DNA from: an uncultured Rickettsiales bacterium
Lineage (GTDB): Bacteria > Pseudomonadota > Alphaproteobacteria > WRAU01 > CAYYLE01
Length of the DNA stretch: 60,452 nucleotides
Assembly: GCA_964472375.1 (NCBI GenBank)
Contig: CAYYLE010000002.1
Location: 1 to 60,452 of the forward strand
Reading direction: 5' to 3'
Made by a program: the position numbers and the translations under genes. The notes under the pieces are model-generated. The model made no database searches, was not told where the DNA came from, and saw only the letters and a program-made list of their open reading frames with translations. Positions 1,571 through 42,724 of the stretch are shown piece after piece. Position 1 is the first letter of the stretch. Each line of letters begins with the position of its first letter.

Positions 1571-2278
1571 TTAATCTTGATTACCAAAAAGTATATCTGT
1601 ACCCAAAAAATTACGCTTAAGCTCTAAACATGCTTTCATTATAGAGAAACTACCTGCACAAGGGTCTAGTACAATATCTTGCTCTTTTGTAACACTTTCT
1701 ATTAAACTTTTTTGTAAAAAATGGGGTTTTTGATGGGTGTGAACTTTATCGGTTATCTTTTCACTTACACAGTCTCTAATATCATGCTTTAACCAAATAT
1801 CTTTTGCTCTTATGGGTTTTTTTTGCAAAACAAGTAAATACTCACAACATCTTCTTGTACGGTAACCCATGCCAAGCCTTTCTTTATTCCATGTTATAAG
1901 GTCAACTATTTGCATATTTTCAGGCACATATTGTTTTACACCCTCACATAGGTGGAATTTATCTATCCAAAAAAACAAATGCCCTGATGGCCTTAAAACT
2001 CTTGCAATCTCTTCTAAAAAACTATGAATAGTTTCTTCGCTCATTTGGCTTAATTTTGCCCTTGCAATTTGTCTTTTTCCTTCATTTCCATATCTAAGCT
2101 TATCAAGAACACCTCTGTATTGAGGGTCAAAAAATACGCAAGATACTACACATTCTTTAATGTGCTTTAAAAAAAGCAAACCATCAAAGCTATTTTTATG
2201 GTTTATCTCTATTGGTTTACCATCTATATTTTGACTGGTAAAGATATTATTGTGTACTATTTGCTTGTCTTTAAACAT
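1571..2278 (-). CDS. Beta-class (N6-adenine or N4-cytosine) DNA methyltransferase, orphan
   Basis: The 235-aa protein has a catalytic motif IV-like FFDPQY near the N-terminus and an AdoMet motif I-like VLDPCAGSFS near the C-terminus. That IV-then-I order is the permutation typical of beta-class amino-MTases. No restriction endonuclease or specificity gene lies on either side. Confidence 0.7.
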   Translation of the reverse strand: MFKDKQIVHNNIFTSQNIDGKPIEINHKNSFDGLLFLKHIKECVVSCVFFDPQYRGVLDKLRYGNEGKRQIARAKLSQMSEETIHSFLEEIARVLRPSGHLFFWIDKFHLCEGVKQYVPENMQIVDLITWNKERLGMGYRTRRCCEYLLVLQKKPIRAKDIWLKHDIRDCVSEKITDKVHTHQKPHFLQKSLIESVTKEQDIVLDPCAGSFSIMKACLELKRNFLGTDILFGNQD

Positions 2279-8053: not shown

Positions 8054-11000
8054 TTATTCCCAAAGTTCTGGGTCTGCATCTTGAGGGATTAAAGGTTTAC
8101 TATCTGTGTTTGTGTTTCTTCTTCTAAAGGTTGACTTTGGTTCTTCTTTTTGCCCTTCTGTGCTTTGTGTTCTGCCTGTGTTTACAATAGTTTGAGACCT
8201 TACAGAACCAACCTCTTGCTCTCTTTTAGAACTATCTAAAACATTCCTATCAACAGGATATTGACCAAAAGGGTCTTCTTCTGTTTCTACTTTTATATTT
8301 TGCTTATTTTCAATACCTGTGGCTTTTTCAAGCTCTTGAATTCTTTTCTGTTCTTCGGTTTTTTCTTGCTCTACCTCTGTTCTACCAAGTTGCTCTGGCA
8401 CTAAGCTATTTGGGTTAACTTTGCTTGAACCTGGGTTGGATATTTTTTCAGTATTGCTAAAGTCTGTGCCTCTTAGGTTTTCACTTGGTACTAAGTTGTC
8501 TATTTTTGCACCCACACCGCCTATGGTATCTATATTTGTTTGTCTATTAGTATCAGTATTTTTAATATTTGACCTAACTTCTTTTATAGCCTTTTTCTCT
8601 ATTTCTTTAGCTTCTGCACTTCTTTCTACTTTTTTCTCTTCTTTTGGCTTTATTTCAGGGTTTTTTATAACAATAGAGCCATCTGACTTGCTAAATTTAT
8701 ACTCTGGTTGTGCAAGAGAGCCTTTAAAATAATACGCCATAGGTTTAGAAGATTTAGCAGTGCGAGAAATATTACCCCTTATATCTATAAAAGAATCTTC
8801 AACTCTGTAAGACCCTTCAAAGCTCCCTCTTCCTTTTGTTTTACCATGAATGTAATCAACAACAACAGGAAAAAAGTCAAACCTTCCTGAAAAAGCCTGC
8901 AAGCTACCGTAAAGGTCGTTTATGTATATCTCTGTTTTACCATCAATTTTTTTGTTACTTTTGCTTAAAGTAAGAAAGAAACCCTTACTGTTATTTGTTT
9001 TGTTAGATTTAAACCTTTCTAACTTTACAAACCTAATGTCACCTTGCAGCATGCTTAAAAAACCTGCTGAAGTCATGTTTGAAGACCTTAATCTACCATT
9101 TAAAACAACCTTGCCTTTTACTTTATACTCACTAAACATGTACTTGTTTATATCTTCAAGGTTTAAAGCAAAATTATTAAAGGTTATGTTTCCAGCTAGT
9201 GCAGGGTTTACATTTTTATTATAGCTAAAGAATAAAAGTGCACTACCTTGCTCTTGAGACTGTACATCAAACCTTTGTACAGTAATACCAGAACTGTTTA
9301 AAGAAGCATCTACTTTTAAGTTTTTAAGCAATATATTGTCAAACTCAAACTCTTCACTTTCTAGCTTTAAGTTAATATTTAGTTTGTCGCTTATACCAAA
9401 GAAAGAATCTTTTTCTACAGAAAGTAAATTAGACCCTGACATATTCTCACTAGGTCTTAAGATGTTTAAAAAATAATCATAATCAAATTTATTGTTCTTA
9501 ACAGTAAGAGCAACATCTATTATAGAAACTCTTTCTTCAAGGTTAACTTGCATGTTGTTAAACTCTAGCTCATCAAACTTTAGCATAATATTACTAAAAT
9601 AAACCTTAGAGTTTTGCACACTTAAATCAAATGCTGTTGAAAAAGACCTGCTATCTTTAGAAGCTGCCTTAATTGCTTTGTAAGACGAAGGGGATACATT
9701 AAGCAAATTTAAAAAATCATCAAAGCTACCTTGTGCATTACTTACAAGCTTTGCTTGTGAAAGCTCTGGATATAAAAAACCTGCAAGAGATACCTCTGTT
9801 TGCTTATAGTTTGCACTTAGATTGTTTAAGTAATACTGCCCCTTGCTATCTCTGTTAAGATTAACATTGATTTCAACTGGGTTGCTTTCGTTTAGTGATT
9901 TAAAGTTAATATTGCTAAATGTGTGCGTTGCATCAAAAACCTTATAAAAAGAGCTATGTAAACTATTTAGATAAACAAACAAATAAGATATATTTGCTTG
10001 CCCCATAGACCTATTTTTTTGTGCTCTTTCTTGATAAGACCTTACAAAATTAGCCATATTGGCAGAATTTACATCAATATCTAGTTTTACAGCATTGCTT
10101 GAAAAACCGTCAACCATTGATAAAGAGCCTGTTATATTTGTACTGTGATTTACATCAAGATTTATATTTTTTAGCTCTACTAATTTGTTATTAGCTACAA
10201 GGTTTGCACTAAAGTTTGCACTTTTAAACGCTGATGTATCAAAAAAACTATCATTTGCACTTGAAAGAGCAAGCAAATAATTTATAGCCCCACTGCTTGC
10301 ACTTGTCTTTAAGTCCATTGCAGATTTTTCAAAATTTACAGTACCTTCTGCTCTAATTTGATTTTCAGATCTTTCACCTAAATACAAACTAAAGTCAATC
10401 TCTTTTCCACCTTCTGATGTTCTTGAAGAGTAAAAATTGTATGAGTGCTTTTCTTTACCTGTAAAAAAGTAGCCTTCACTTTCTAAAGAGCCTGTTATGC
10501 CTCTTTCTAAATAACCACCTAGGTTTTGCACTGAAAATACATTGTTTTCTCTTTGGTTTAAAACAACCACATTGACTCTTCTGTATGTAAAGCTATCTAC
10601 CTTGTTAGGGTCAAGCTCTATTCGTGAGATAAAAAACCTATTTAACCCCATGAAAAAAGAACCTTCGGCAAAATCATCTGCTACTTGATTAGATGTTTTT
10701 TGGCTATTTGGCAAAATGCTATCGCTTTGCTGAGTGAAAAACTCTTGACTGTTGTAATCTTGAATATCTGTATTGTGTGAAAGACCATCTCCTTCATTAA
10801 AAGAATCTTGCTCTTGTTTATCAAAGTATCTTGAGCTATTTCTTTGTACAAATTTTTGAAAAATTTGCTCTATTTGACCATCTAAAGAGCGACTATCTGT
10901 TTTATCTTTACTAAAAGATGTTTTTAAAACAAAGTTTGCACCTTCTATCTGTACACTATCTACTGTAAGCTTACCTAAAAACAGGCTTAAAAACTTAAAA

Positions 11001-11566
11001 CTAAGTTTTACTTTGTTTGTTTCAAATACATTAATAGAAACACTGCCATCTTTTTGCGATGGTGTATTGCCCACTTGATTAAAAGAAACATTGTTTATAA
11101 ATATAGAAGGACTTGGAACTATGCTTACTTTTATAGAACCATCAACACTTGCTTGATAGCCTGTAATATCACTTAGAGCGTCTTGAAAGTAGTTTTTGTA
11201 GTTTGTGGTATTTATAACCCTTGAAAGCACAACGCTAAAAAGAAATAAGGCTATAAAAACAATTACTAGAAACTTAAACAGCTTACCTTTTATAAAGTTT
11301 AAGGCAAAAAAAGCTATATAAACTATTAAGGTAACAACCTTTGCGACAAAAAGAGCTATCTTGTCAAGCAATAGTATTAAGGGCTTTACTTTAGGGAACA
11401 TAGATAAAACAGCTTTTTTAAATGGCTCAAATAAATGAGCTATTGAATTAAAAAGCTTGTTTAAATCTTGCTTTACCTTCTCACGACCAGTGTGACTAGA
11501 TTCTTTGTTGCTCTCTTTTTGTGCAACTTTTTTAGCTCTAGAAACAATAAAACGCCCTAGGTTCAT
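8054..11566 (-). CDS. AsmA-family envelope protein (putative inter-membrane lipid-transport type), very long form
   Basis: The 1170-aa protein has two N-terminal TM helices followed by an AsmA-like N-domain (DITGYQASVDGSIKVSIVPSPSIFINNVSF). An AsmA_2-like C-terminal module follows (GRGSFEGSYRVEDSFIDIRGNI...YYFKGSLAQPEYKF). The last roughly 220 aa form a charged E/K/Q/T/N-rich tail. Confidence 0.7.
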   Translation of the reverse strand: MNLGRFIVSRAKKVAQKESNKESSHTGREKVKQDLNKLFNSIAHLFEPFKKAVLSMFPKVKPLILLLDKIALFVAKVVTLIVYIAFFALNFIKGKLFKFLVIVFIALFLFSVVLSRVINTTNYKNYFQDALSDITGYQASVDGSIKVSIVPSPSIFINNVSFNQVGNTPSQKDGSVSINVFETNKVKLSFKFLSLFLGKLTVDSVQIEGANFVLKTSFSKDKTDSRSLDGQIEQIFQKFVQRNSSRYFDKQEQDSFNEGDGLSHNTDIQDYNSQEFFTQQSDSILPNSQKTSNQVADDFAEGSFFMGLNRFFISRIELDPNKVDSFTYRRVNVVVLNQRENNVFSVQNLGGYLERGITGSLESEGYFFTGKEKHSYNFYSSRTSEGGKEIDFSLYLGERSENQIRAEGTVNFEKSAMDLKTSASSGAINYLLALSSANDSFFDTSAFKSANFSANLVANNKLVELKNINLDVNHSTNITGSLSMVDGFSSNAVKLDIDVNSANMANFVRSYQERAQKNRSMGQANISYLFVYLNSLHSSFYKVFDATHTFSNINFKSLNESNPVEINVNLNRDSKGQYYLNNLSANYKQTEVSLAGFLYPELSQAKLVSNAQGSFDDFLNLLNVSPSSYKAIKAASKDSRSFSTAFDLSVQNSKVYFSNIMLKFDELEFNNMQVNLEERVSIIDVALTVKNNKFDYDYFLNILRPSENMSGSNLLSVEKDSFFGISDKLNINLKLESEEFEFDNILLKNLKVDASLNSSGITVQRFDVQSQEQGSALLFFSYNKNVNPALAGNITFNNFALNLEDINKYMFSEYKVKGKVVLNGRLRSSNMTSAGFLSMLQGDIRFVKLERFKSNKTNNSKGFFLTLSKSNKKIDGKTEIYINDLYGSLQAFSGRFDFFPVVVDYIHGKTKGRGSFEGSYRVEDSFIDIRGNISRTAKSSKPMAYYFKGSLAQPEYKFSKSDGSIVIKNPEIKPKEEKKVERSAEAKEIEKKAIKEVRSNIKNTDTNRQTNIDTIGGVGAKIDNLVPSENLRGTDFSNTEKISNPGSSKVNPNSLVPEQLGRTEVEQEKTEEQKRIQELEKATGIENKQNIKVETEEDPFGQYPVDRNVLDSSKREQEVGSVRSQTIVNTGRTQSTEGQKEEPKSTFRRRNTNTDSKPLIPQDADPELWE

Positions 11567-23526: not shown

Positions 23527-24813
23527 TTAAGAATTCATATTATTAAAAAAGTCTTTATTGTTTTTTGTATTTCTCATTTTGTTTAATAAAAACTCTGCTG
23601 CTTCAACAGTAGACATTTGCATAAGAATTCTTCTTAAAACCCACATTTTACTAAGTGTAGCTTTATCAACAAGTAGTTCTTCTTTTCTTGTACCTGATTT
23701 TGCAATATCAATAGTAGGGAATATTCTTTTGTCTGCAATTCTTCTATCAAGGATAATTTCAGAGTTACCTGTTCCTTTAAACTCTTCAAAAATCACTTCG
23801 TCCATTTTAGAGCCAGTATCAACAAGTGCTGTACCAATAATAGTTAGAGAACCACCTTCTTCAATATTTCTTGCTGCACCAAAAAATCTTTTTGGTCTTT
23901 GTAATGCATTTGAATCAACACCACCTGTTAAAACTTTACCAGAAGATGGTATAACTGTATTGTAAGCTCTTGCTAAACGAGTAATTGAATCAAGTAGTAT
24001 AACAACATCTTGCTTTTGTTCTACAAGTCTTTTTGCTTTTTCAAGAACTATTTCAGCAACTTGAATGTGCCTTGATGCATGTTCATCAAATGTTGAGCTA
24101 ACAACCTCGGCATTTACAGACCTTATCATATCTGTAACTTCTTCAGGTCTTTCATCTATTAGTAAAATAATAATTTTACACTCTGGATGGTTTATAGATA
24201 TAGAATTAGCAATATTTTTCAACATAACTGTTTTACCAGTTCTTGGTGGAGCAACAATTAAAGCTCTTTGACCTTTACCAATAGGTGTTATTAAATCAAT
24301 AACACGAGAGGTATATTCGTCTTTAGCTGCATCATTTTCAACTTCTAATAAAAGTCTTTCTTGCGGGTAAAGCGTTGTTAAGTTGTCAAAATTATTACGA
24401 TATTTAACAAAGTTTGAAACCTCAACTCCATTGATTTTTAAAACCTTTACAAGTGCAAAGTTTTTTTCATTAACTCTTGGTGTTCTTATTTCACCTTCTA
24501 CAAAATCACCTGTTCTAAGCCCTAGTTTTCTTATTTGGTTAGGAGAAACATAAACATCATCAGAACCTGTTAAGTAGTTATATTCTTGAGACCTTAAAAA
24601 ACCAAAACCATCTGAAATAACCTCTAATGTACCGCTACCTACTACTACTTTTCCATCTTCTTGTAGCAGGTTTTTTAGTATTGCAAACATAATATCTTGC
24701 TTACGCATAGAGCCAACACCTTCTATGCCAAGTTCTTGGGTGTATGATATTAAATCCGCAATTTTTTTGAATCTAAAATCATTTAAATGTATAACAGAAT
24801 TGTCTTTTGCCAT
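23527..24813 (-). CDS. rho: Transcription termination factor Rho
   Basis: The Rho N-domain ([20 protein letters not shown]), the Walker A motif APPRTGKT and the Q/R loops are present. I place the start at ATG 24813 ([12 protein letters not shown]...). The ORF track's TTG at 24843 would add 10 non-conserved residues. Confidence 0.95.
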
Positions 24814-25186
24814 GAAAAAATTTCTCGCGTTAATAGAAAACAAAGCTTTATTGATAAAAGCATTTGAATAAAAATATTTAATAATAAAAAAGATGTGATA
24901 AGAAATAAGGAAATAATCTAATCATCGGAATAATAAGTTATTTTGCAATCATTGTCAATTTTTTATATTGTAAAACATATATGGATAAAATGTGGAAAAC
25001 TGAAGATAAAGTATTTTATTAAGTTTTTTTACACTTTTTATCCACCACTTTTTAACTAGTTTTCATGAAAGCTCTAATTATAGCTTTTATAAAGCTTTAT
25101 TGCTTATTTTTTTGATTTATCAACATGCTTTATTAATATAATATTTATATATAAAATATATTAATATAATAATAGTTGTTAAAAAC
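24814..25186. other. Candidate chromosomal origin of replication (oriC), overlapping the rho and maf promoter region
   Basis: This is the largest non-coding gap in the window. Four 9-mers lie within one mismatch of the DnaA box TTATCCACA. They are TATGGATAA at 24980-24988 (reverse), TGTGGAAAA at 24991-24999 (reverse), TTATCCACC at 25038-25046 and TTATCAACA at 25117-25125. An almost pure A/T tract follows at 25126-25186. The flanking synteny mnmE-rho / maf-aroE-coaE-dnaQ is origin-type. Confidence 0.55.
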
Positions 25187-25792
25187 ATGTTTTTTAATAA
25201 AAAAATTTATTTAATTTCACAAAGCGAAACAAGAATAAATCTTTTAAAGAAAGTCGGGTTTGAAGTAAAAACCTTAGTAAATAACTTTAATGAAGATAGT
25301 TATCATAAAGCTAATATTGATAATTCTGCTTTAGAAGATAGTTTAAACCTAAGTATGTTAAAAATAAACAACTATTTACAAAACCATAAATATACAGAAG
25401 ATACTATATTAGTAGGTTGTGATCAAACAGCAATTTGTAACAATATTAAATTAAACAAAGCAAAAGATATAAAACAAGCCAATGATATATTGAAAAATAT
25501 ATCTAATAAAACTATAACTCTTTATTCTTCTTTTTCTGTTTATATGAATAATAAGTTTTATAATGGTTACAATAGTGCAGAAATAAAAATAAAAGAATTA
25601 CAAAAGAAAGATATAGAGATTTATTTAAATTTCAATAAAGATATCGCACTTTCTTGCCTTGGTTGTATAGACTTTGAAGGAAAAGGAATACATTTAGTAG
25701 AGAAAGTTTTAAAAGGTGATTATTATACTATTTTAGGATTTCCTGTAATTGAATTTTTAGAAACATTAAACAAGATAAAAAATGAAAAATAA
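25187..25792 (+). CDS. maf: Maf-like nucleoside triphosphate pyrophosphatase / septum formation protein
   Basis: The 201-aa protein begins IYLISQSETRINLLKKVGF, which resembles the Maf LILAS.SP.R..LL pattern. Its position ahead of aroE-coaE-dnaQ is conserved. Confidence 0.8.
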   Translation: MFFNKKIYLISQSETRINLLKKVGFEVKTLVNNFNEDSYHKANIDNSALEDSLNLSMLKINNYLQNHKYTEDTILVGCDQTAICNNIKLNKAKDIKQANDILKNISNKTITLYSSFSVYMNNKFYNGYNSAEIKIKELQKKDIEIYLNFNKDIALSCLGCIDFEGKGIHLVEKVLKGDYYTILGFPVIEFLETLNKIKNEK

Positions 25793-27240: not shown

Positions 27241-27923
27241 GAAAAATAGTATTTGACTTTGAAACAACAGGTTTTGAACCTTCTGAAGGTCATAAAATAA
27301 TAGAATATGCATTTTTGGAGCTTATAGACAACGATATTACAGATAACTATATTTATGATCTTGTTAACCCAAAAAGAAGTATTCCAGAAGATTCTATAAA
27401 AGTTCATGGAATAACAGATGATAAAGTTAAAGACAAAGAAACTTTTGATAAACATATAGACAGAATTCTTGACTTTATAGGTGATGATTCTGTTTTGATA
27501 GCTCATAATGTAGAGTTTGATAAAAAGTTCTTAAATCATGAAATGAAGGACATAGGCTTAGCTAGTAAAATTCTTCCTAATGATAGATTTGTAGATAGTT
27601 TAGATATAGCAAAGCGTAAGTTTCCGGGCCAAAGTAATAATCTTGATGCTTTATGTAGAAGGCTAGATATAAGTTTAAGTGCAAGGGCAGATGGCCATAA
27701 TGCTTTGGTTGATACAGAGCTACTTGCTAAAGTTTATATTAAAATGACTGTAAAAGAAGAGCTTGATATCTTTGTTGAAGGTAAAAAAGAGCAAATTGTA
27801 AATAATAGAGATGTTGTTTACAATGCAGATTTTACTTATAGAACATTTGATGTGAAAAAAGAACAGCAAGAAAAACACTTAGATTTTATTAAAAATACTA
27901 TAAAAAACTCTTCTTGGTATTAG
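27237..27923 (+). CDS. dnaQ: DNA polymerase III epsilon subunit (3'-5' proofreading exonuclease)
   Basis: The exonuclease motifs are Exo I VFDFETTG, Exo II LIAHNVEFDKKFL and Exo III GHNALVDTELLAKVY. Confidence 0.9.
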   Translation: MRKIVFDFETTGFEPSEGHKIIEYAFLELIDNDITDNYIYDLVNPKRSIPEDSIKVHGITDDKVKDKETFDKHIDRILDFIGDDSVLIAHNVEFDKKFLNHEMKDIGLASKILPNDRFVDSLDIAKRKFPGQSNNLDALCRRLDISLSARADGHNALVDTELLAKVYIKMTVKEELDIFVEGKKEQIVNNRDVVYNADFTYRTFDVKKEQQEKHLDFIKNTIKNSSWY

Positions 27924-28399
27924 CCTGTATTTTTATTTTGGCTATCTAAACTTGATTTATTTAAATAATCCAAAGCATCATTATAGTATTGGTTAAAATC
28001 AATACCAGGAAAGTTAATTCTATTAAGATTTGACTTTAAAAGATTGTTGTTTAGCTTATTAATTAGTATTTTGTAAACATCTGGTAAAACAACTAAATAA
28101 AGCTGATTAATAAAACTGTAGTGGTCTTTTGCATCCATATAAACATAGTTGCCAAGGTTAGCTTCTACGTTTACAAGAACTTGGTCTGCTTTACACACTC
28201 TTAGTTTTACAGACATATCAACTTCGTAAATACTTTCACTTACTTCGTCGTATTTAATTCCTATTGGACTAAGTAATGTGTTTAACCCATGAAATAGATT
28301 TTTATCTTCATTTTCATTTTCTAAAAACAAATACACAGAATCGTGTATAGATAATTTGTAGTTCTTAAAAAAACTTTTATATATATTTACACCGTGCAT
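27920..28399 (-). CDS. secB: Divergent SecB-like export chaperone
   Basis: The 159-aa protein occupies the conserved alphaproteobacterial slot between dnaQ and the Tim44-like gene. Its similarity to the SecB pattern is only loose (KLSIHDSVYLFLEN..., NRINFPGIDFNQYY near the C-terminus). Confidence 0.5.
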   Translation of the reverse strand: MHGVNIYKSFFKNYKLSIHDSVYLFLENENEDKNLFHGLNTLLSPIGIKYDEVSESIYEVDMSVKLRVCKADQVLVNVEANLGNYVYMDAKDHYSFINQLYLVVLPDVYKILINKLNNNLLKSNLNRINFPGIDFNQYYNDALDYLNKSSLDSQNKNTG

Positions 28400-28478
28400 T
28401 TTTTAAAGTGGACTTAAGGTTTTTTTACTTTTAAACTTAACAAGTACAGTACTTAATTATACTTTAAAGAGTTTTATA

Positions 28479-32669: not shown

Positions 32670-34520
32670 ATGATTTTTGATGTAGTGGTAGTAGGTGCAG
32701 GACATGCAGGAATAGAAGCAGCAGCTGCAGCAGCTAGATATGGTGCAAATGTTGCTTTAATATCTAAAAGTAAAGAAGATATTGGTCAAATGTCTTGTAA
32801 CCCTGCAATAGGTGGGCTTGGTAAAGGGCATATTGTGAAAGAAATTGATGCTTTAGATGGCTTAATGCCAGAAATTGCAGACAATGCTTGCATACACTTT
32901 AAAATACTTAACAGAAGTAAAGGTGCTGCTGTGCAAGGTCCTCGCTCTCAAGCTGATAGAGAGCTTTATAAGAACTTTGCACACAATAAAGTACTAAACT
33001 ATAAAAATATTACTTTTGTAGAAGGTGTTGTTGATGATATTAAACTTAAAGATGGCAAAGTAAGCTCAATTGAGCTTGAAGATGGAAAAAGCATTAAGTG
33101 TGGTGCTATTGTTTTAACAACAGGTACTTTTTTATCTTCTACTATCTTTATTGGAAAAGAGCGTTTACAAGGCGGTAGATGGGGTGAAAAATCTTATAGC
33201 GGGCTTTCTAAATTTTTGCGTTCATGTAATGTAGATGTAGCTCGTTTAAAAACAGGAACACCTGCAAGGCTTGCTAAAGATTCAATAGATTTTTCAGTTT
33301 TAGAAGAGCAAAAAGGCGATAGCATCCCAACCCCTTTTTCATATGCTACTGATAAAGTAACTGTTCCTCAAGTAAGTTGCTATATTACCCATACAAATAG
33401 TGAAACACACAATATTATAAAAGAAAACCTTGCAGAATCACCTTTGTTTGATGATTCTATAAAAGGTAAAGGCCCAAGATATTGCCCATCTATTGAAGAT
33501 AAAATACATAGGTTTAGCCAAAGAGATGCACACCAAATATTTCTAGAGCCTGAAGGGTTAAACAGTAATTTAATATATCCAAATGGAATATCTACCTCTT
33601 TACCAAAAAGTGTTCAAGATAGCTTTATAAGAAGCATAAAAGGTCTTGAAAATGCCAAAATTGTAAACTATGGATATGCAATAGAGTACGACTATGTAAA
33701 CCCTAAAAGCCTAGATAAAAACCTGCAACTTGATGGAATAAAAGGGCTTTTTTTAGCTGGTCAGATAAATGGCACAACAGGATATGAAGAAGCAGGAGGG
33801 CAGGGTCTAATTGCAGGGTTTAATGCAGCTAGGTTTGCCTCTTCTGATTGCAGTGATTTTACAATGTCTCGTAGTGATGCTTATATAGCAGTGATGATAG
33901 ATGACCTTATTAACTTTGGTGTAAAAGAGCCTTATCGCATGTTTACATCTCGTGCTGAATACAGGATTCTTTTAAGGGCAGACAATGCTGATTTTAGATT
34001 AACTGAAGCAGGCTATAAGGCTGGTTTTGTTTCACAAAAAAGATATGATGCATTTTTACAAAGAAAAGAAAGAGTGGAAAAAATAAAGCATGTTCTTTCT
34101 CAATATAGTTTTACCCCAAATTCTTTAGAAAAAGAAGGTATAAGATTAAACAAAGACGGTGTAAGAAGAGATGGCTTAAAACTTTTAAGTTTATCGGCTG
34201 TTTCTTTAGAAGATGCTATTAAAATTATGCCTAATCTTAAAGAGTTTGATGCAAAAGACTTGGAGTTTGTTGAAAATGATTGTAAATATAGTAGCTATAT
34301 AGAAATCTACAATAAAGAAAGAGAAAGACTAAAAAAGGAAGAAAGTATAGTTATTCCTACTAGTTTAGATTATAGTAAAATACCTAGCTTATCTTCTGAA
34401 ATGGTTGAGCTATACTCAAGAGAAAAACCAAAAAATATATATACAGCCTCACGAATGAAGGGTGTTACACCTGCTTCTGTGTTTGCTGTTCTTGCTTATG
34501 TAAAAAAGAACAATAAATAA
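32670..34520 (+). CDS. mnmG: tRNA uridine 5-carboxymethylaminomethyl modification enzyme MnmG (GidA)
   Basis: The 616-aa protein has the FAD motif DVVVVGAGHAGIEAA plus MSCNPAIGG, GPRYCPSIEDK and GQINGTTGYEEA. Confidence 0.97.
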   Translation: MIFDVVVVGAGHAGIEAAAAAARYGANVALISKSKEDIGQMSCNPAIGGLGKGHIVKEIDALDGLMPEIADNACIHFKILNRSKGAAVQGPRSQADRELYKNFAHNKVLNYKNITFVEGVVDDIKLKDGKVSSIELEDGKSIKCGAIVLTTGTFLSSTIFIGKERLQGGRWGEKSYSGLSKFLRSCNVDVARLKTGTPARLAKDSIDFSVLEEQKGDSIPTPFSYATDKVTVPQVSCYITHTNSETHNIIKENLAESPLFDDSIKGKGPRYCPSIEDKIHRFSQRDAHQIFLEPEGLNSNLIYPNGISTSLPKSVQDSFIRSIKGLENAKIVNYGYAIEYDYVNPKSLDKNLQLDGIKGLFLAGQINGTTGYEEAGGQGLIAGFNAARFASSDCSDFTMSRSDAYIAVMIDDLINFGVKEPYRMFTSRAEYRILLRADNADFRLTEAGYKAGFVSQKRYDAFLQRKERVEKIKHVLSQYSFTPNSLEKEGIRLNKDGVRRDGLKLLSLSAVSLEDAIKIMPNLKEFDAKDLEFVENDCKYSSYIEIYNKERERLKKEESIVIPTSLDYSKIPSLSSEMVELYSREKPKNIYTASRMKGVTPASVFAVLAYVKKNNK

Positions 34521-34537
34521 ACTCTTTGCCTAAAAAA

Positions 34538-34573
34538 CAGCTATTTTTTAACAAATGGCTGTTTCTATTTTTT
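34538..34573 (+). terminator. Rho-independent terminator candidate after mnmG
   Basis: CAGCTATTT (34538-34546) pairs with AAATGGCTG (34553-34561), including one G-U pair. TTTCTATTTTTT follows the hairpin. Confidence 0.55.
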
Positions 34574-34575
34574 AT

Positions 34576-34591
34576 TGTTTCACGTGAAACA
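34576..34591. promoter_or_regulatory. parS centromere-like site 1 (perfect palindrome TGTTTCACGTGAAACA)
   Basis: This exactly matches the palindromic form of the conserved ParB/Spo0J-binding parS consensus. It sits inside a 25-bp direct repeat (34569-34593) whose second copy carries parS 2. Confidence 0.85.
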
Positions 34592-34613
34592 AAATACCAT
34601 TTAAAAACAAACC

Positions 34614-34642
34614 TTGTTTTATTTTTTCAAAAAAATTATTAT
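34614..34642 (+). promoter_or_regulatory. Candidate sigma-70-type promoter of rsmG-parA-parB
   Basis: TTGTTT (34614-34619), a 17-nt spacer, then TATTAT (34637-34642). The promoter lies between the two parS sites, so parS 2 would fall in the 5' leader. Confidence 0.3.
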
Positions 34643-34680
34643 TGATAATAATTAGTAATTTATTTTAAAAACATTTTTAT

Positions 34681-34696
34681 TGTTTCACGTGAAACA
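34681..34696. promoter_or_regulatory. parS centromere-like site 2 (perfect palindrome TGTTTCACGTGAAACA)
   Basis: This 16-mer is identical to site 1 and lies 105 bp away. It is embedded in the second copy of the 25-bp repeat TTTTTATTGTTTCACGTGAAACAAA (34674-34698) and ends 9 nt before the rsmG ATG. Confidence 0.85.
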
Positions 34697-34705
34697 AATA
34701 CACAT

Positions 34706-35308
34706 ATGAAATTAGAAAACTTTAACTTAAATAATGAAAAAATAGAGCTTATACATAAGTATATTAAGCTTTTAACAGAGTATAACCAAAAGTTTAACTT
34801 AATATCTAAACATACAGTTGATGATATTTTAGATAGGCACATAATAGACTCTTTACAGCTTGTTAAATATATAGACAGTAATGCAAAAAAAATAGCTGAC
34901 CTTGGAAGTGGTGCAGGGTTGCCTGGTATTGTTTTAGCAATTGCTTTAGACAATATTGAGTTTTGTTTAGTAGAAAGCAATGGTAAAAAAGCATCTTTTT
35001 TGCAAACTGTAGTTAAAGAGCTTGGTTTATTAAATGTAAAGGTGGTTAATGACAGAATAGAGACTTTGCAAGGTAAGGGTATTTATTTTGATATCATTAC
35101 AGCAAGAGCCTTAGCGTCTTTAGATATTTTGTGGAGTTTGTCTGCAAACATATTAGGTAAAAATGGTTATACATTGTTTTTAAAAGGTAGAAAACATAAA
35201 GAAGAAACTAGTGCTTTGTTGAAAAAAAATAAAGGTTTAAAAATTGACTTTTTAGATGCATTGGTTGAAGAATCTAAAATAGTGAAAATACACAAAAAAG
35301 GAAAGTAA
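34706..35308 (+). CDS. rsmG: 16S rRNA (guanine527-N7)-methyltransferase RsmG (GidB)
   Basis: The sequence contains NQKFNLIS, RHIIDSL and the SAM motif DLGSGAGLPGIVLAI. The gidA-gidB-parA-parB synteny is conserved. Confidence 0.9.
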   Translation: MKLENFNLNNEKIELIHKYIKLLTEYNQKFNLISKHTVDDILDRHIIDSLQLVKYIDSNAKKIADLGSGAGLPGIVLAIALDNIEFCLVESNGKKASFLQTVVKELGLLNVKVVNDRIETLQGKGIYFDIITARALASLDILWSLSANILGKNGYTLFLKGRKHKEETSALLKKNKGLKIDFLDALVEESKIVKIHKKGK

Positions 35309-35310
35309 AA

Positions 35311-36075
35311 ATGTCTAAAATTATATCTATTGTTAACCAAAAAGGTGGAGTTGGTAAAACAACAACAGCAATTAATTTAGCGGCATCTTTAGCAGCAATG
35401 AAAAAGAAAGTTCTATTAATAGATTTTGACCCACAAGGAAACGCAAGCACAGGTGTACAGGTGTATTTAGAGCAGGGAGAAAAACATGTTTATCATTTCT
35501 TAATAGGGCAAGCATCTTTTGAGCAAGCTGTAAGAAAAACTATTATAAACGGGCTTGACATCCTGCCATCAAACATGGATCTTACAGGGGCAGAGGTAGA
35601 GCTAGGTGCAATGGAAAACAGCTATACAGCCTTAAAAGATGCTTTAAAAGATATAGTATTAGATTATGATTATTGCCTTATAGATTGCCCGCCTTCTTTA
35701 GGTATGCTTACCATTAATTCTTTAATAGCGTGTGATGATGTACTAATACCATTGCAAACAGAGTATTTTGCACTAGAAGGGCTTAGTCACCTAATGAAAA
35801 CAATAGAGCTTATAAGAGATTCTTATAACTCTAGTTTGAATATTAGAGGCATACTTTTAACAATGTATGATGCACGAAATAACCTTACAAAATCAGTTGA
35901 AAAAGATGTAAGAGATTACTATAAAGATATTGTTTATAACTCTTATATTCCTCGTAATGTAAAGATATCAGAATCTCCATCACATGGTTACCCTGTAATA
36001 GTGTACGACCCGCAGTGTACAGGTGCAAAAGCTTATTTAGATTTAGCAGTAGAGTTTTTAAATCAAGAAAAGTAA
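35311..36075 (+). CDS. parA: Chromosome partitioning ATPase ParA (Soj)
   Basis: The deviant Walker A motif is NQKGGVGKTTTAINLA. DCPPSLG and other ParA/MinD-type motifs are present in a 254-aa protein. Confidence 0.95.
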   Translation: MSKIISIVNQKGGVGKTTTAINLAASLAAMKKKVLLIDFDPQGNASTGVQVYLEQGEKHVYHFLIGQASFEQAVRKTIINGLDILPSNMDLTGAEVELGAMENSYTALKDALKDIVLDYDYCLIDCPPSLGMLTINSLIACDDVLIPLQTEYFALEGLSHLMKTIELIRDSYNSSLNIRGILLTMYDARNNLTKSVEKDVRDYYKDIVYNSYIPRNVKISESPSHGYPVIVYDPQCTGAKAYLDLAVEFLNQEK

Positions 36076-36088
36076 AAGGTTTGATTTT

Positions 36089-37081
36089 ATGAAAAATACA
36101 ATAGATACAAGTTTGTTGCTTAATAAAAAACTAGATAACAATAATAAAAAACCTAAGGCTTTAGGCAGAGGGCTTTCTGCATTGCTAGGTGAGGTTGAAA
36201 GCACTAAAGTTTCAATCAACAATCCACAAGTGCCTAAACCTAAAGCAAAGCAAGAGTATTCTACAGAAGTTAAAGAAGCTCCTAAAGAGGATGGAAAAAA
36301 TGTTGTTTTAATAAAAATAGAGCATATAGCACCAAATATCAATCAACCTCGTAGGCTTTTTGATGATGAGAAAATAAAAGACCTTGCAAGCTCAATTAAA
36401 GAAAAAGGTATAATACAGCCTTTAATTGTAAGAAGGCTAAACAACCTAGAAACAGACTATGAAATAGTAGCAGGTGAAAGAAGATTCCGTGCAGCGTCTT
36501 TTTTAAAACTCAAAGAAGTTCCTTGTATTGTTGTAAAAGCAACTGATATTGAAGTTTTAGAAATAGCTCTTATTGAAAACATACAAAGGGAAAACCTAAG
36601 CCCAATAGACGAAGCAGAAGCATATAATGAGCTTTTGGTAACTCATAATCATACCCATGAAAGCTTATCTCATGCTGTTTCTAAAAGTAGGCCTTATATT
36701 AGCAATTATTTAAGGCTTTTAAGCTTGCCAAATGCTGTTAAAAACATGGTTAATCAAAGGCTTATCAGTGTTGGTCATGCAAGATGTTTGATAAACTCTC
36801 AAAACCCTGAAAAAATAGCAGAGCTTATTATAAGTAAAAAACTAAGTGTTAGAGAAACTGAAAAACTAGTAAATGATGAAAAATCTAGCACTAAAGAGAT
36901 AGTGAAGCATTTAAAGAATCCTGATCAGGTTGAGTACATACAAAACTTGCAGAAAGATATTTCAAGCTATTTAAATAGAGATGTTGTTATAAAGCAAGAT
37001 AGTAAAGGCAGGGGCTATATCAAGGTTAAGTTTCTTTCAATAGAAGATGTTTATAGGTGGTTTGATATAAATAAAAAATAA
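36089..37081 (+). CDS. parB: Chromosome partitioning protein ParB (Spo0J)
   Basis: The sequence shows N-terminal LGRGLSALLG, ParB box I/II (NINQPRRLFD, IVAGERRFRA) and an HTH region (ESLSHAVSKSRPYISNYLRLLSLP). Confidence 0.95.
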   Translation: MKNTIDTSLLLNKKLDNNNKKPKALGRGLSALLGEVESTKVSINNPQVPKPKAKQEYSTEVKEAPKEDGKNVVLIKIEHIAPNINQPRRLFDDEKIKDLASSIKEKGIIQPLIVRRLNNLETDYEIVAGERRFRAASFLKLKEVPCIVVKATDIEVLEIALIENIQRENLSPIDEAEAYNELLVTHNHTHESLSHAVSKSRPYISNYLRLLSLPNAVKNMVNQRLISVGHARCLINSQNPEKIAELIISKKLSVRETEKLVNDEKSSTKEIVKHLKNPDQVEYIQNLQKDISSYLNRDVVIKQDSKGRGYIKVKFLSIEDVYRWFDINKK

Positions 37082-38125: not shown

Positions 38126-39151
38126 TTATTGTAGTGTAGCACTTAAAGAAAGCAAAGCACCATTACTTGTTTCGTTTTCTTGGTTGTATTTTTCTGTGTA
38201 TGAAAATAAAGAGCCTTTTAGAGCAAATACATTGTTGATTTTATACATCCCATGAAGTGAAGTATAGTAAACCATATTTTCTTGCTTGTATTGCTCTAAT
38301 TTTGAGTTTAAATAATTTAGTTCAAGCATAAAATTATGTATTTGGTACTGAAGCTTTGTTTCGTAAATTAAACTTTGGTTGTTTTCTAAAAAATTATTTT
38401 TGTATGAAAATAAAACAGTAAAACCAAGGTAAGAGATTCTTGTTAAAGCTCCATGCTCATTATTTAAAAAAACATCATTTAAGTTGGTTTCTCTTTTTTT
38501 GTATTTTCTATAATTTATTTTTATGTCATATGCTATTGCGTAGCTTTCGTTAAAATATGCTATTGTTGTGTCAAAAATATCTGCTATATTATGTTCGTTA
38601 AAAGTGTAAGAGCCTGCAATAAGGGTGTTGTAATTATCAGCAAGATACTTGTTGTAGTAAGATACATTAAAATTGTTTGAGTTACTGTAACTGCTTGTAT
38701 AAATATTGTTACTAAGTCTTGTTTTTTTATAATCAACAAAATCAAATAAATTATTAAAAGTGCTTATTTTGTTAGTGTGAAAAAAGCTATTGTAAAATGT
38801 TTGCGAATTTATATTGGGTAAAATTCCAAAGCTTAAGTTGTGTGAGTTAGTTTTTAGTTCAATATTTGCATTTTCAATATAATTTAATGAGTTTTTATTT
38901 TGTTTATCAAAAATAAAAGATGTTTCTTTCAGGTTTGTGGCTTTTAGGTTTAAAGAAACTGCATCTCTGGCACCAAATTTTTGTGTATATTTTAGTTTTA
39001 TGTAGCTATCATGGTTGTATTTTTCAAAAAAACTAGAGCTGTTTACTATTTGTTCTGTGTGTAGCTTGTAGCTCATATTTTGCTCAAAACTATTTAATTT
39101 TAAACAAGAGTATGAAAGCAGTATTATTGACCATATGGTTGTTTTTTTCAT
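38126..39151 (-). CDS. Hypothetical secreted protein, possible outer-membrane beta-barrel
   Basis: The 341-aa protein has an N-terminal signal-like segment (MKKTTIWSIILLSYSCLKLNSF). It is extremely N/Y/S/F-rich with alternating hydrophobic patterns suggestive of beta-strands. I recognise no family, and the C-terminus (SATLQ) lacks the usual terminal aromatic residue. Confidence 0.4.
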   Translation of the reverse strand: MKKTTIWSIILLSYSCLKLNSFEQNMSYKLHTEQIVNSSSFFEKYNHDSYIKLKYTQKFGARDAVSLNLKATNLKETSFIFDKQNKNSLNYIENANIELKTNSHNLSFGILPNINSQTFYNSFFHTNKISTFNNLFDFVDYKKTRLSNNIYTSSYSNSNNFNVSYYNKYLADNYNTLIAGSYTFNEHNIADIFDTTIAYFNESYAIAYDIKINYRKYKKRETNLNDVFLNNEHGALTRISYLGFTVLFSYKNNFLENNQSLIYETKLQYQIHNFMLELNYLNSKLEQYKQENMVYYTSLHGMYKINNVFALKGSLFSYTEKYNQENETSNGALLSLSATLQ

Positions 39152-39711: not shown

Positions 39712-42246
39712 ATGAGATACAACTTTAAGCAAAATGAAAAAAAATGGCAAAAATATTGGCTAGAAAATAGTAAAAATATTTTTACAAACCACAAAGACAA
39801 AGAAAAATACTATGTTTTAGAAATGTTTCCATATCCATCAGGAAACATACACATGGGGCATGTAAGAAACTACACACTAGGCGATATTATAGCTCGTTAC
39901 TATCAGCTAAATGGCTATAATGTAATACACCCAATGGGTTGGGATGCCTTTGGTTTACCTGCTGAAAATGCAGCAAAAGAACACAACGTAAACCCAGGTG
40001 ATTGGACCTACAAAAACATTGAAAAAATGAAGCTTGTATTGCAAGAGCTTGGTTTTTTAATAGATTGGTCAAAAGAGTTTGCAACATGTGATGAAAACTA
40101 CTATAAGCATGAGCAAGCAATATTTTTAAAGCTTTATGAAAAAGGCTTAGCTTTTAAAAAAGAAACTTGGGTAAATTGGGACCCATTAGAGCATAGTGTA
40201 TTAGCCAATGAGCAAGTTGTTGACGGTAAGGGCTGGCGTTCAGGTGCTTTGGTTGAGCAAAAGCTTATGAGCCAATGGTTTTTAAAGATTTCAGATTACT
40301 CCCAAGAGCTTTTAGATGGCATTGAAACCCTAAAAGATTGGCCTGAAAAGGTTAAAACCATGCAAAAAAATTGGATTGGTAAATCTAAAGGGGCTTATAT
40401 AGACTTTAAAATTAAAAATTCTGATGAAAACCTTAGAATTTTTACCACAAGACCAGAAACAATTTTTGGGGCAACTTATGCTTGTATATCTCCTAAGCAT
40501 AAAATAGCAATAGAGCTAGCAGAACAAAGTGAAGATATTAAAAAAGCTATAACTAAGTTTAATTCTTTAGGCACAAGTAAATCAGTAATTGATAAAGCCG
40601 AAAAAGAAGGCATAGATACAGGTTTAAAGTTAATTCACCCTTTTGATTCTAGTATTGAAATACCTTTATATATTGCAAACTTTGTGCTTGTAGATTATGG
40701 CAACGGTGCGTTATTTTCTTGCCCTGCACATGATGAAAGAGACTTTGAGTTTGCACAAAAATATAACCTGCCAATTATTCCAGTTGTAAGGGGCGAAAAA
40801 AGCAAGCTACCTGAAAAACCGTACACAGACAAAAAAGGTGTTATGATAAATTCTTCTTTCTTAGATGGCTTAAGTGTTGAAGATGCTTTTGATAAAGCTA
40901 TTTTAGAGCTAGAAAGCAAAAACTGTGGCGGTGCAGAAACAAACTATCGTTTAAAAGATTGGTTAATCTCAAGGCAAAGGTACTGGGGTTCACCTATACC
41001 TATTGTGTATTGTAAAAGCTGTGGCACTGTACCAGAAAAAGAAGAAAACCTACCTATTGCATTACCAAAAGATGTAGATATGAGCCAAAAAGGTAACCCT
41101 TTAGATGCTCATAAAACTTGGAAGCACTGTAAATGCCCTAATTGTGGTCAAGATGCCACTAGAGAAACAGACACTTTTGATACTTTCATGGAATCTTCTT
41201 GGTATTTCTTGCGTTTTGCATCTTTGCACGATGATAAACCATTTGATAAAAATGAGATTAACAAAAACCTTCCTGTTGATATGTATATAGGCGGCATTGA
41301 GCATGCTATTTTGCACTTATTGTACTCAAGGTTTTTTACAAGAGCATTAATTGACACAAATCTACTTGATGAAAGCGTAAAAGAGCCATTTAAGGCACTT
41401 TTAACCCTTGGAATGGTTTGCCATGCTGTGTATAAAGATGAAGATGGTGCTTATGTTTTTCCTCAAGATGTTTTTGCAGATGAAGGCGGAGTTCTTTTAC
41501 ATAAGGAAACTGGCAAAAAAGTTTCTGTTTTCCCTTCAGAAAAAATGAGTAAGTCAAAAAAGAACATAGCAGACCCTGTGCATTACTATAAAGAATATGG
41601 TGCTGATGCTTGTCGTTTGTTTGTAGTATCTGATTCACCTCCAACAAGAGATGTGCAATGGAGCGAAGAGGGTATTGAAGGTACTTGGCGTTTTTTAAAC
41701 AAGCTATGGAATGTGTCTTTAAAGGTAAGTGAGCAAGAGTTTAGAGATTTTGGAGAGAGTGAAGACCTTAAAAAGCTTACACACAAAACAATTGCAAGTG
41801 TGAGTGCTGATATTAAAGCAATGCGTTACAATAAAGCAATTGCAGGCACAAGAGAGCTTTTTAACGAAGTTGAAAAACTTGTCAACAGTAATAAAATTTG
41901 TAGTAATTTGCAAGAAAGTATAGAAGCAATAGTTATGCTTTTAAATCCTTTTGTGCCTCATATTACAGAAGAGATATGGCAAAATATCTTTAAAAAGAGC
42001 AAAACTATAACAGAAGGCAGTTGGCTAAAATACAACAAAGAGTTTGCAGATGTTGACACTGCAAATATAGCTGTGCAGGTTAATGGAAAAACAAGAGATG
42101 TTGTTACAGTTAGTAAATCTATAACAAAAGAAGATATGTTAAACCTTGTTGAAAAAGAAAGCACTGCTTATAGGTTTATAGAAGGTAAAGAGGTGAAAAA
42201 AGTTATTTTTGTACCTGGAAGAATAATAAATGTTATTGTGGTTTAA
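39712..42246 (+). CDS. leuS: Leucine--tRNA ligase
   Basis: The 844-aa class I aminoacyl-tRNA synthetase has the HIGH-type motif ([13 protein letters not shown]), KMSKS and a CP1 editing domain. Confidence 0.97.
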
Positions 42247-42724
42247 GTTACTTTTATTAACCCTTGTGTTGTTTGTAAACTCTTGTGGGCTTTCATATCA
42301 ATATGGGGGTATGCTTTCTGCAAAAAATAAGGTTTATGTAGATTATATAGAAGGCGTTGAAGGTAATATCTTACGCAATAGGCTTGCAGATTACTTTAGT
42401 GCTGATGTTACCAAAGATAGCAAGTATGTTATAAGGTCAAATGTAACTATAAATACAGTAAATAGCAATACTGATTCTGAAGGCTTTGCTACTTCTAAAA
42501 TGGTTTATGTATATGCACATTGGCAACTTTATGACATTGAAACAGGCGACATTATCTATGAAGATGTATCTAATAGTTTTTCAAAATATTCATTTAGAGA
42601 TTTAAACTACCTAAACAACCAAGATGAAGTTAGCTCTATTGACGCAAGTATTTTAGTTATAGCTAAAAAAATATTTGATTCCGTATCATTAGTACTTGTA
42701 AATATGGAAGAACAAGAAGAGTAA
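42230..42724 (+). CDS. lptE: LPS-assembly lipoprotein LptE
   Basis: The protein has a signal peptide with a lipobox (LFVNSC). It is about 160 aa long. It occupies the conserved leuS-lptE-holA position and overlaps the end of leuS by 17 nt. Confidence 0.7.

Follow-up and report, generated by a model that had tools for sequence, protein, structure and literature searches.

A candidate chromosomal replication origin between rho and maf in an uncultured, AT-rich alphaproteobacterium

The window analysed here, a stretch of 60,452 nucleotides from an uncultured Rickettsiales bacterium (contig CAYYLE010000002.1), contains a 373-bp intergenic gap with 19% GC (24814-25186) between the genes rho and maf, which is considered here as the candidate chromosomal replication origin (oriC). 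Together with a 9.3-kb extension on the left, the analysed span amounts to about 70 kb in all; on the right the contigs end. Once the small genes Sdh5 and HIT are taken into account, no intergenic region of the extended span is larger than the gap, in agreement with its description in the initial annotation as the largest non-coding stretch. The runner-up measures 322 bp, and between 12 and 34 kb no other intergenic region exceeds 140 bp. None of the open reading frames (ORFs) in the gap is credible, and they were rejected as genes because they are short (at most 38 residues) and of low complexity. Rfam gave no match to the window at gathering thresholds and none to the gap region at E up to 1; thus, no known RNA accounts for the conservation of the gap described below. 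No tRNAs were found in the window.

Pfam and NCBIfam assignments place recG, fldA, queA, tgt and trkH to the left of the gap, followed by mnmE and rho on the minus strand. To the right lie maf, aroE, coaE, dnaQ, a minus-strand ORF, a Tim44-like gene, mltA, the minus-strand genes hslU and hslV, HIT, gidA, gidB, parA and parB; beyond parB follow an ABC transporter, DUF3576, leuS, an ORF without assignment, holA and polA. Together with a motif search for parS, these assignments bear out the gene order proposed initially, mnmE-rho on one side and maf-aroE-coaE-dnaQ to Tim44 on the other, with gidA-gidB-parA-parB and parS; a secB label in that order fell, as discussed below. The gene dnaA is not among the scanned ORFs of the window.

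The gap contains four 9-mers that differ by a single base from the DnaA box TTATCCACA (Table 1). Their coordinates, and the 2-bp separation of boxes 1 and 2, are as first listed; a degenerate fifth box, here termed 2', had been missed. An 18-nt inverted repeat (24982-24999 versus 25027-25044) with 89% complementarity has boxes 1 and 2 in one arm and boxes 2' and 3 in the other. The result is two mirror-image box pairs that point apart, with a start-to-start spacing of 11 bp within each pair, which places the paired boxes on the same face of the helix. Box 4 follows 79 bp farther right and is aimed into a 46-bp A/T run. Boxes that lie 2 bp apart with an 11-bp periodicity, in two oppositely oriented halves, resemble the low-affinity arrays of Escherichia coli oriC.

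The clustering was evaluated by simulation. Across the whole window, 17 boxes with no more than one mismatch compare with 17.8 predicted by a first-order Markov model, and boxes are thus not enriched window-wide. The gap has four of them within 146 bp, against 0.076 expected from its own composition; none of 20,000 composition-matched simulated gaps reached three boxes, and only 1 of 300 simulated whole windows showed a four-box cluster inside 150 bp anywhere. The impression that four boxes within about 150 bp are non-random was therefore correct, and the cluster is real and not a product of chance. The comparison with other intergenic regions, proposed as a check at the outset, gave the same picture: across the 70 kb, each intergenic region of at least 60 bp holds zero boxes or one, against four in the gap. 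A 12-nt exact repeat, AAAGCTTTATTG, brackets the cluster (24842-24853 and 25091-25102), and each copy contains the palindrome AAAGCTTT. The repeat was set aside as a functional element since it is not conserved in two relatives.

Directly 3' of box 4 lies the A/T run. The initial annotation had noted about 60 bp of nearly pure A/T after this box, and direct counting gives 92% A/T for 25126-25186, including a pure run of 46 bp that is the longest in the window (the next has 28 bp). By nearest-neighbour calculation, the run is also the least stable duplex in 60 kb at 40, 60 and 100 bp, with a 40-bp stability of -32.0 kcal/mol versus -37.1 kcal/mol for the next site. It is part of a 28-bp tandem repeat (25115-25142 and 25143-25170). 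In E. coli oriC, box R1 is oriented toward the unwinding element in the same manner as box 4 is here. The junction was compared with the basal unwinding system (BUS) pattern (PMC8287927), which calls for a DnaA box carrying no more than two mismatches, 0-16 bp of spacer and three or more NAN trios, all read on the strand that shows the box as TGTGGATAA. The minus-strand sequence of the junction is 5'-TAT TAA TAA-AGCA-TGTTGATAA, which gives three trios and a 4-bp spacer, a match that is barely informative in pure A/T DNA. From these properties, the run is predicted to be the site of unwinding.

Table 1 Features of the rho-maf gap and its surroundings (window coordinates).
Feature	Coordinates	Strand	Sequence, evidence or remark
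rho, left boundary gene	23527-24813	-	Transcribed away from the gap; Pfam Rho_N, Rho_RNA_bind, ATP-synt_ab; ATG at 24813
Inferred rho 5' leader/transcription-start region	24814-24929	-	Holds conserved AATCTAATCA (24915-24924) and a loose IHF match (24920-24932)
Putative rho promoter	24930-24958	-	TTGACA (24958-24953), 17-bp spacer, TATTAT (24935-24930); 11/12 matches
DnaA box 1	24980-24988	-	TATGGATAA (TTATCCATA on minus strand); one mismatch to TTATCCACA
DnaA box 2	24991-24999	-	TGTGGAAAA (TTTTCCACA on minus strand); one mismatch to TTATCCACA
Degenerate box 2'	25027-25035	+	TTTTACACT; three mismatches; inverted repeat and alignment
DnaA box 3	25038-25046	+	TTATCCACC; one mismatch to TTATCCACA; starts 11 bp after the start of box 2'
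DnaA box 4	25117-25125	+	TTATCAACA; one mismatch to TTATCCACA; points toward the A/T run
Candidate DNA unwinding element	25129-25174	.	46-bp pure A/T run; run length, nearest-neighbour stability
maf, right boundary gene, first of maf-aroE-coaE-dnaQ block	25187-25792	+	Transcribed away from the gap; Pfam Maf, NCBIfam Maf
parS sites (two, perfect)	34576-34591, 34681-34696	.	TGTTTCACGTGAAACA; exact matches

Phylogenetic footprinting was carried out with three lineages, namely the window and two relatives, L087 and L089 (contigs from GCA_040777085 and SRR26065848), the only two related lineages in the protein collection. Both are fully syntenic with the window. The Maf protein of L087 is 77% identical and its gap measures 354 bp, and the corresponding values for L089 are 50% and 370 bp. 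A scan of contigs of GTDB species representatives with a Rho query gave 80 loci, none above 70% identity and none from a close relative, because Rho is too conserved. A Joint Genome Institute (JGI) metagenome scan with a Maf alignment gave no confirmed further relative, and a metagenome scan with the gap pattern AATCTAATCA-N23-27-CATTGTCAA gave 45 matches, none with rho, maf or gap similarity. Thus, the footprinting rests on three lineages. The same sequence as the window is present in the whole-genome shotgun assemblies GCA_019826105, GCA_019826165, GCA_019826185 and GCA_040777145, which comprise tens to hundreds of thousands of contigs, and it was recovered neither by the Rho scan of GTDB representatives nor by the JGI metagenome scans; this suggests that the lineage is an undescribed symbiont sequenced along with its host.

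The box cluster is retained in both relatives. Three boxes in the gap of L087 differ from the consensus by one base at most, and the gap of L089 holds three of the only four such boxes in 20.6 kb, one of the three being a perfect TTATCCACA. Box 2 with its flanks (ATGTGGAAAACT) consists of 100% invariant columns across the three lineages. Box 3 is identical in L087 and reads TTATCAACA in L089 (78% invariant columns), and box 4 is identical in L087 and reads TTTTACACA, with two mismatches, in L089 (67%). The site aligned with box 2' is TTATCCCCT in L087 and the perfect TTATCCACA in L089; the 2'/3 pair contains at least one good box in every lineage, one being weak where the other is strong. The ACATGCTTTATTA that follows box 4 is invariant, the 13 bp after box 4 show 85% invariant columns and the A/T run 74%. 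The BUS junction is identical in L087, and L089 has only two trios. Invariance is low in the spacers, 36% from box 2 to box 2' and 31% from box 3 to box 4. Such patchy conservation fits binding sites separated by free spacers, and the retention of at least three good boxes in three lineages while the spacers diverged argues for continuing selection. Among strain variants of the species itself, 11 gap positions are variable and none falls inside a box; about one was expected, so the result is in keeping with the footprint but not significant.

The initial annotation had likened the neighbourhood to that of the Caulobacter crescentus origin, and this was confirmed by mapping the window proteins onto 11 alphaproteobacterial loci from the Rho scan (Sphingomonadales L007-L014 and L021, a Caulobacterales metagenome-assembled genome L017, Maricaulis L018 and Marinicaulis L019). 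All 11 loci carry the dnaQ-coaE-aroE-maf block 2-3.7 kb upstream of rho, the two pointing apart, and eight continue after rho with mnmE-gidA-gidB-parA-parB; nothing maps past rho in the remaining three. The Maricaulis interval comprises maf, DUF299 (Kinase-PPPase), a 365-bp gap with several xxATCCACA boxes, hemE, a hemJ-like gene and rho. In Sphingomicrobium (L008), DUF299 is already gone and maf faces hemE across a gap with two TGTGGAAAA boxes. This variant, which is that of box 2, adjoins maf in four Sphingomonadales loci. The mapped C. crescentus origin is near hemE and overlaps duf299 (PMC6393856), and the predicted Rickettsia origins occupy the hemE/COG1806 position (PMC1914354). Judged by the content of the interval in the other loci, the gap is the syntenic remnant of the rho-maf interval after loss of hemE, hemJ and DUF299/COG1806, a loss by which rho and maf became the boundary genes. 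As had been remarked initially, hemE and DUF299 are missing beside the gap; neither is among the window ORFs that were scanned. In the window, gidA-gidB-parA-parB is found on the maf side after hslUV-HIT (32670-37081), and trkH-tgt-queA now abut mnmE. One inversion spanning mnmE-rho-gap-maf through HIT would explain the position of gidA-gidB-parA-parB.

The raw GC skew follows the gene strand, and third codon positions were therefore modelled. A binomial model of G versus C at these positions, with a leading/lagging term and one polarity switch, was fitted to 62 genes over the 70 kb. One switch is favoured over none by 37.7 log-likelihood units. The skew is approximately +0.02 for inferred leading-strand genes and -0.25 for lagging-strand genes, and the plus strand is G-rich to the right of the switch, a polarity that indicates an origin rather than a terminus. 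By gene bootstrap, the switch has a 95% interval of 7.3-25.8 kb, which includes the gap, and within 10 kb on either side of the gap the leading/lagging contrast gives p=0.003 in the window. The skew thus localises an origin to this region without pinpointing it, the reversal being placed only to about 17-26 kb. In related bacteria, the GC-skew shift likewise spans about 20 kb (PMC1914354).

The two parS palindromes are identical, 16 bp long and 105 bp apart in the gidA-gidB spacer (34521-34705). Two exact matches compare with 0.35 sites expected at up to three mismatches. The pair is located upstream of gidB-parA-parB, does not adjoin parB and is 9.5 kb from the gap.

The gap was also assessed against the properties used by Ioannidis et al. 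2007 (PMC1914354) for the recognition of origins. At 373 bp, it falls in their range of 200-1000 bp for the intergenic region, and its AT content (81%) exceeds the 69% of the window, in line with AT above the genome average. It contains DnaA boxes, and over the 70 kb more of them than any other intergenic region; a GC-skew shift occurs in the window. The boundary gene of their scheme (hemE, COG1806/DUF299 or COG1253) was not found beside the gap among the scanned ORFs; rho and maf, the ancestral neighbours one step further out, take its place. Their list further names IHF sites, for which the gap has matches to a loose consensus only, and a similarity to close relatives above the genome background; here the boxes and the candidate unwinding tract are conserved and the spacers are not.

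The proposal that the promoters of both flanking genes reside inside the origin is supported for rho. The putative rho promoter is the best promoter-like site in the region, is located 22 bp from box 1 and has a -35 hexamer with 100% invariant columns in both relatives. The three-lineage alignment shows a conservation peak in the rho leader region at 24913-24925. For maf the proposal is weakly supported: no confident promoter was found in the gap, and two TATAAT hexamers (25137-42 and 25165-70) are located inside the A/T run upstream of the gene, so that the run probably carries -10 elements of a maf promoter. Promoter-like hexamers are frequent in such AT-rich DNA (12 found versus 5.3 expected). 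The loose IHF consensus WATCAN5WTR has two matches in the gap (24920 and 25105), against about 0.2 expected from its density in the window; the motif at 24920 is present in all three lineages but overlaps the rho promoter.

Taken together, the box cluster kept in relatives, the melting tract, the synteny, the skew polarity and parS at a distance of 9.5 kb support the initial proposal that the rho-maf gap is the oriC of an AT-rich and probably host-associated alphaproteobacterium, with a probability of roughly three in four. Every check that was run either agrees with an origin at the gap or does not contradict it. We infer from the sequence that DnaA binds here, that the DNA unwinds and that the origin fires. 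In the proposed mechanism, DnaA would bind both mirror-image pairs (1 and 2, minus strand; 2' and 3, plus strand) as well as box 4, which is directed at the adjacent A/T tract. A DnaA oligomer growing from box 4 would then open the tract, where the helicase would be loaded. The rho promoter, and probably the maf promoter, would be situated inside the origin. Such an origin would retain the ancestral alphaproteobacterial place between the rho side and the maf-dnaQ side.

Several observations weigh against this assignment. The skew optimum is at 20.6 kb and not at 25.0 kb, and the gap is 3.9 log-likelihood units lower, a deficit of about 2 units after correction for an approximately 1.9-fold overdispersion. 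The raw cumulative G-C curve is a valley from 16.3 to 25.7 kb that is too flat to place an origin, gene orientation gives no useful bias once the left extension is added, and within 10 kb of the gap L087 shows a weak leading/lagging contrast (p=0.03) and L089 none (p=0.5). There is no perfect DnaA box in the window. Box 1, one of the four listed initially, is not conserved: its single mismatch in the window becomes two in L087 and three in L089. In AT content, the gap is ordinary among the intergenic regions of this DNA (71-86%). Over its whole length, the gap is as similar to the relatives (identity 0.82 and 0.62) as the adjacent maf gene is; its identity is above that of most, not all, intergenic regions, with two short promoter gaps more conserved, and the rho and maf promoters can explain part of the conservation. 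The gap contains no CtrA site (TTAA-N7-TTAA) and no match to the strict IHF consensus WATCAANNNNTTR, and GANTC does not occur between 24774 and 26700; both the CtrA and the GANTC elements belong to a Cori-type origin. Finally, and this is the main weakness of the assignment, the analysed span covers only about 70 kb of the replicon, and a stronger box cluster could lie elsewhere, for example next to dnaA or a relocated hemE.

The best of the rival explanations, improbable in our estimate, is that the gap is a DnaA-regulated divergent promoter serving rho and maf-aroE-coaE-dnaQ, or a DnaA-titrating cluster, with the active origin elsewhere. DnaA-box clusters are known outside oriC in E. coli (datA, DARS) and Bacillus subtilis, and DnaA acts as a transcription factor in Caulobacter. 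The strong and conserved rho promoter close to box 1, the TATAAT hexamers in the A/T run just upstream of maf and the displacement of the skew optimum from the gap would all be in keeping with regulation. However, this explanation leaves unaccounted for that the 46 bp of lowest stability follow box 4 immediately, in an origin-type orientation, and does not account for the coincidence with the ancestral origin position, the skew reversal and the nearby parS sites, and no other intergenic region near the switch is able to hold an origin. Less probable again is a relic of the ancestral origin, whereby the active origin has moved elsewhere, as hemE did in Wolbachia, and has left behind boxes that are degenerating or now serve regulation. 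In its favour, neither canonical boundary gene remains, the window is devoid of a perfect box, boxes 1 and 2' are degenerate in one lineage or another and the skew contrast is absent around the L089 locus; furthermore, rearrangements that split the two flanking genes are documented in Anaplasmataceae (PMC1914354). In contrast to what a relic would show, three lineages with Maf identity down to 50% have each preserved three or more good boxes at aligned sites amid diverged spacers, and the skew polarity still reverses in the window, a signal that would fade after relocation. Chance matches in a conserved promoter/5'-untranslated region, without DnaA-binding function, would suit the window-wide box number and the abundance of promoter-like hexamers but are very improbable given the simulations, the recurrence of the cluster in both relatives with compensating turnover in the 2'/3 pair and the mirror-symmetric pairs with their 11-bp spacing.

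Other observations concern the genes and motifs around the candidate origin. Sequence searches of Pfam, NCBIfam and PDB gave no match for the 159-residue ORF at 27920-28399 (-), labelled secB at first, and BLASTP showed no similarity between it and the Maricaulis SecB. The ORF occupies the secB position of Maricaulis (L018:3625-4134, Pfam SecB, E=2e-52) and is kept in the relatives (92% and 64%). A single-sequence AlphaFold model was unusable (pLDDT, the predicted local distance difference test score, of 37). Either SecB has diverged extremely here or another protein has replaced it. The 79-bp spacer between this ORF and the Tim44-like gene (28400-28478) contains two of the eight full CtrA-type sites of the window, TTAAAGTGGACTTAA at 28403 and TTAATTATACTTTAA at 28453, and few intergenic regions are better conserved (identity to the relatives of 100% and 75%); from its sequence, it may be a CtrA-regulated divergent promoter. 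Window-wide, TTAA-N7-TTAA is depleted (8 versus 19 expected), and GANTC strongly so (55 versus 94 ± 9 expected, with more in 100 of 100 shuffles). A 235-residue ORF at 1571-2278 (-) resembles N6/N4 DNA methylases, the CcrM model among them, in their C-terminal part only and far below cutoff, and may represent a short or degraded CcrM-like methyltransferase.

The ORFs without a family match comprise one of 1170 residues at 8054-11566 (-; Pfam), one of 341 residues at 38126-39151 (-) and one of 171 residues at 181-696 (-; Pfam, NCBIfam). A fourth, of 164 residues at 42230-42724 (+) between leuS and holA, has no Pfam or NCBIfam match; its position is one in which gene order would lead one to expect lptE.

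An origin at the rho-maf gap provides a usable origin call for an uncultured AT-rich lineage so far represented solely by contigs of large, possibly host-derived assemblies and by two diverged relatives, and it can anchor genome orientation, replichore analysis and coverage-based growth-rate estimates. It also illustrates that gene loss can defeat the hemE/COG1806 rule for finding alphaproteobacterial origins and that the wider neighbourhood from rho to maf-dnaQ still marks the site. The missing CtrA and GANTC motifs fit earlier suggestions that host-restricted alphaproteobacteria relax the Caulobacter-style cell-cycle control of initiation. The current understanding of origins is left unchanged by the finding. 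A further reading, possible if rather doubtful, is a stripped-down origin that has lost both boundary genes and all recognisable CtrA/CcrM elements, in which the unwinding tract would double as the maf-aroE-coaE-dnaQ promoter and initiation would be coupled to Rho and dnaQ expression. If so, DnaA occupancy or transcription through the origin would tie initiation directly to Rho and to the Pol III proofreading subunit in a host-associated bacterium.

Among known origins, Caulobacter Cori has the same neighbours as the gap, namely rho and mnmE to one side, maf-aroE-coaE-dnaQ to the other, and parS/parAB near. Cori is also of similar size (about 400 bp), with several imperfect DnaA boxes and an AT-rich tract, and holds the promoter of a flanking gene, hemE in Cori (PMC6393856) and putatively rho here. 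In contrast, hemE, hemJ and duf299 are absent from this locus, where rho and maf are the boundaries, and the five CtrA sites and five GANTC sites reported for Cori have no counterpart, a lack shared with some Anaplasmataceae origins. The candidate boxes are nearer to the E. coli consensus than the Caulobacter G and W boxes are.

In size and composition, the gap, with 373 bp and 81% AT, matches the predicted Rickettsia origins, with 383-396 bp and about 82% AT (PMC1914354, Table 1). The origins of Rickettsia, Wolbachia, Ehrlichia and Anaplasma are intergenic, measure 383-455 bp in most cases and have about three DnaA boxes; they contain two copies of short AT-rich repeats, and CtrA sites are few or absent in some taxa, e.g. 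E. ruminantium (PMC1914354). The gap likewise belongs to an AT-rich alphaproteobacterium, carries an AT-rich repeat in two copies and is associated with a skew shift resolved to about 20 kb. It differs from the origins of Ioannidis et al. in that each of these keeps a hemE or COG1806/COG1253 boundary (PMC1914354), where the gap has neither, and in that IHF in the gap matches the loose consensus only.

The maf-hemE gaps of Sphingomonadales (L007, L008, L010, L014 and L021) are also short, adjoin maf and contain TGTGGAAAA and TGTGGATAA boxes, and the Sphingomicrobium locus, with DUF299 already lost, represents an intermediate state. Unlike the gap, these loci, whose gaps were only counted for boxes, retain hemE on the rho side and belong to GC-rich genomes (61-69%). 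By analogy to E. coli oriC and the BUS (PMC8287927), a box is aimed at the unwinding element across a TGC spacer (AGCA on the other strand) followed by NAN trinucleotides (3'-AAT AAT TAT-5'). The differences are that the junction has only the minimum of three trios, or two in L089, which are nearly uninformative in pure A/T DNA, and that GATC clusters are absent. From these comparisons, the gap is most likely an ordinary alphaproteobacterial origin of the Caulobacter/Rickettsia type that has lost its two usual flanking genes.

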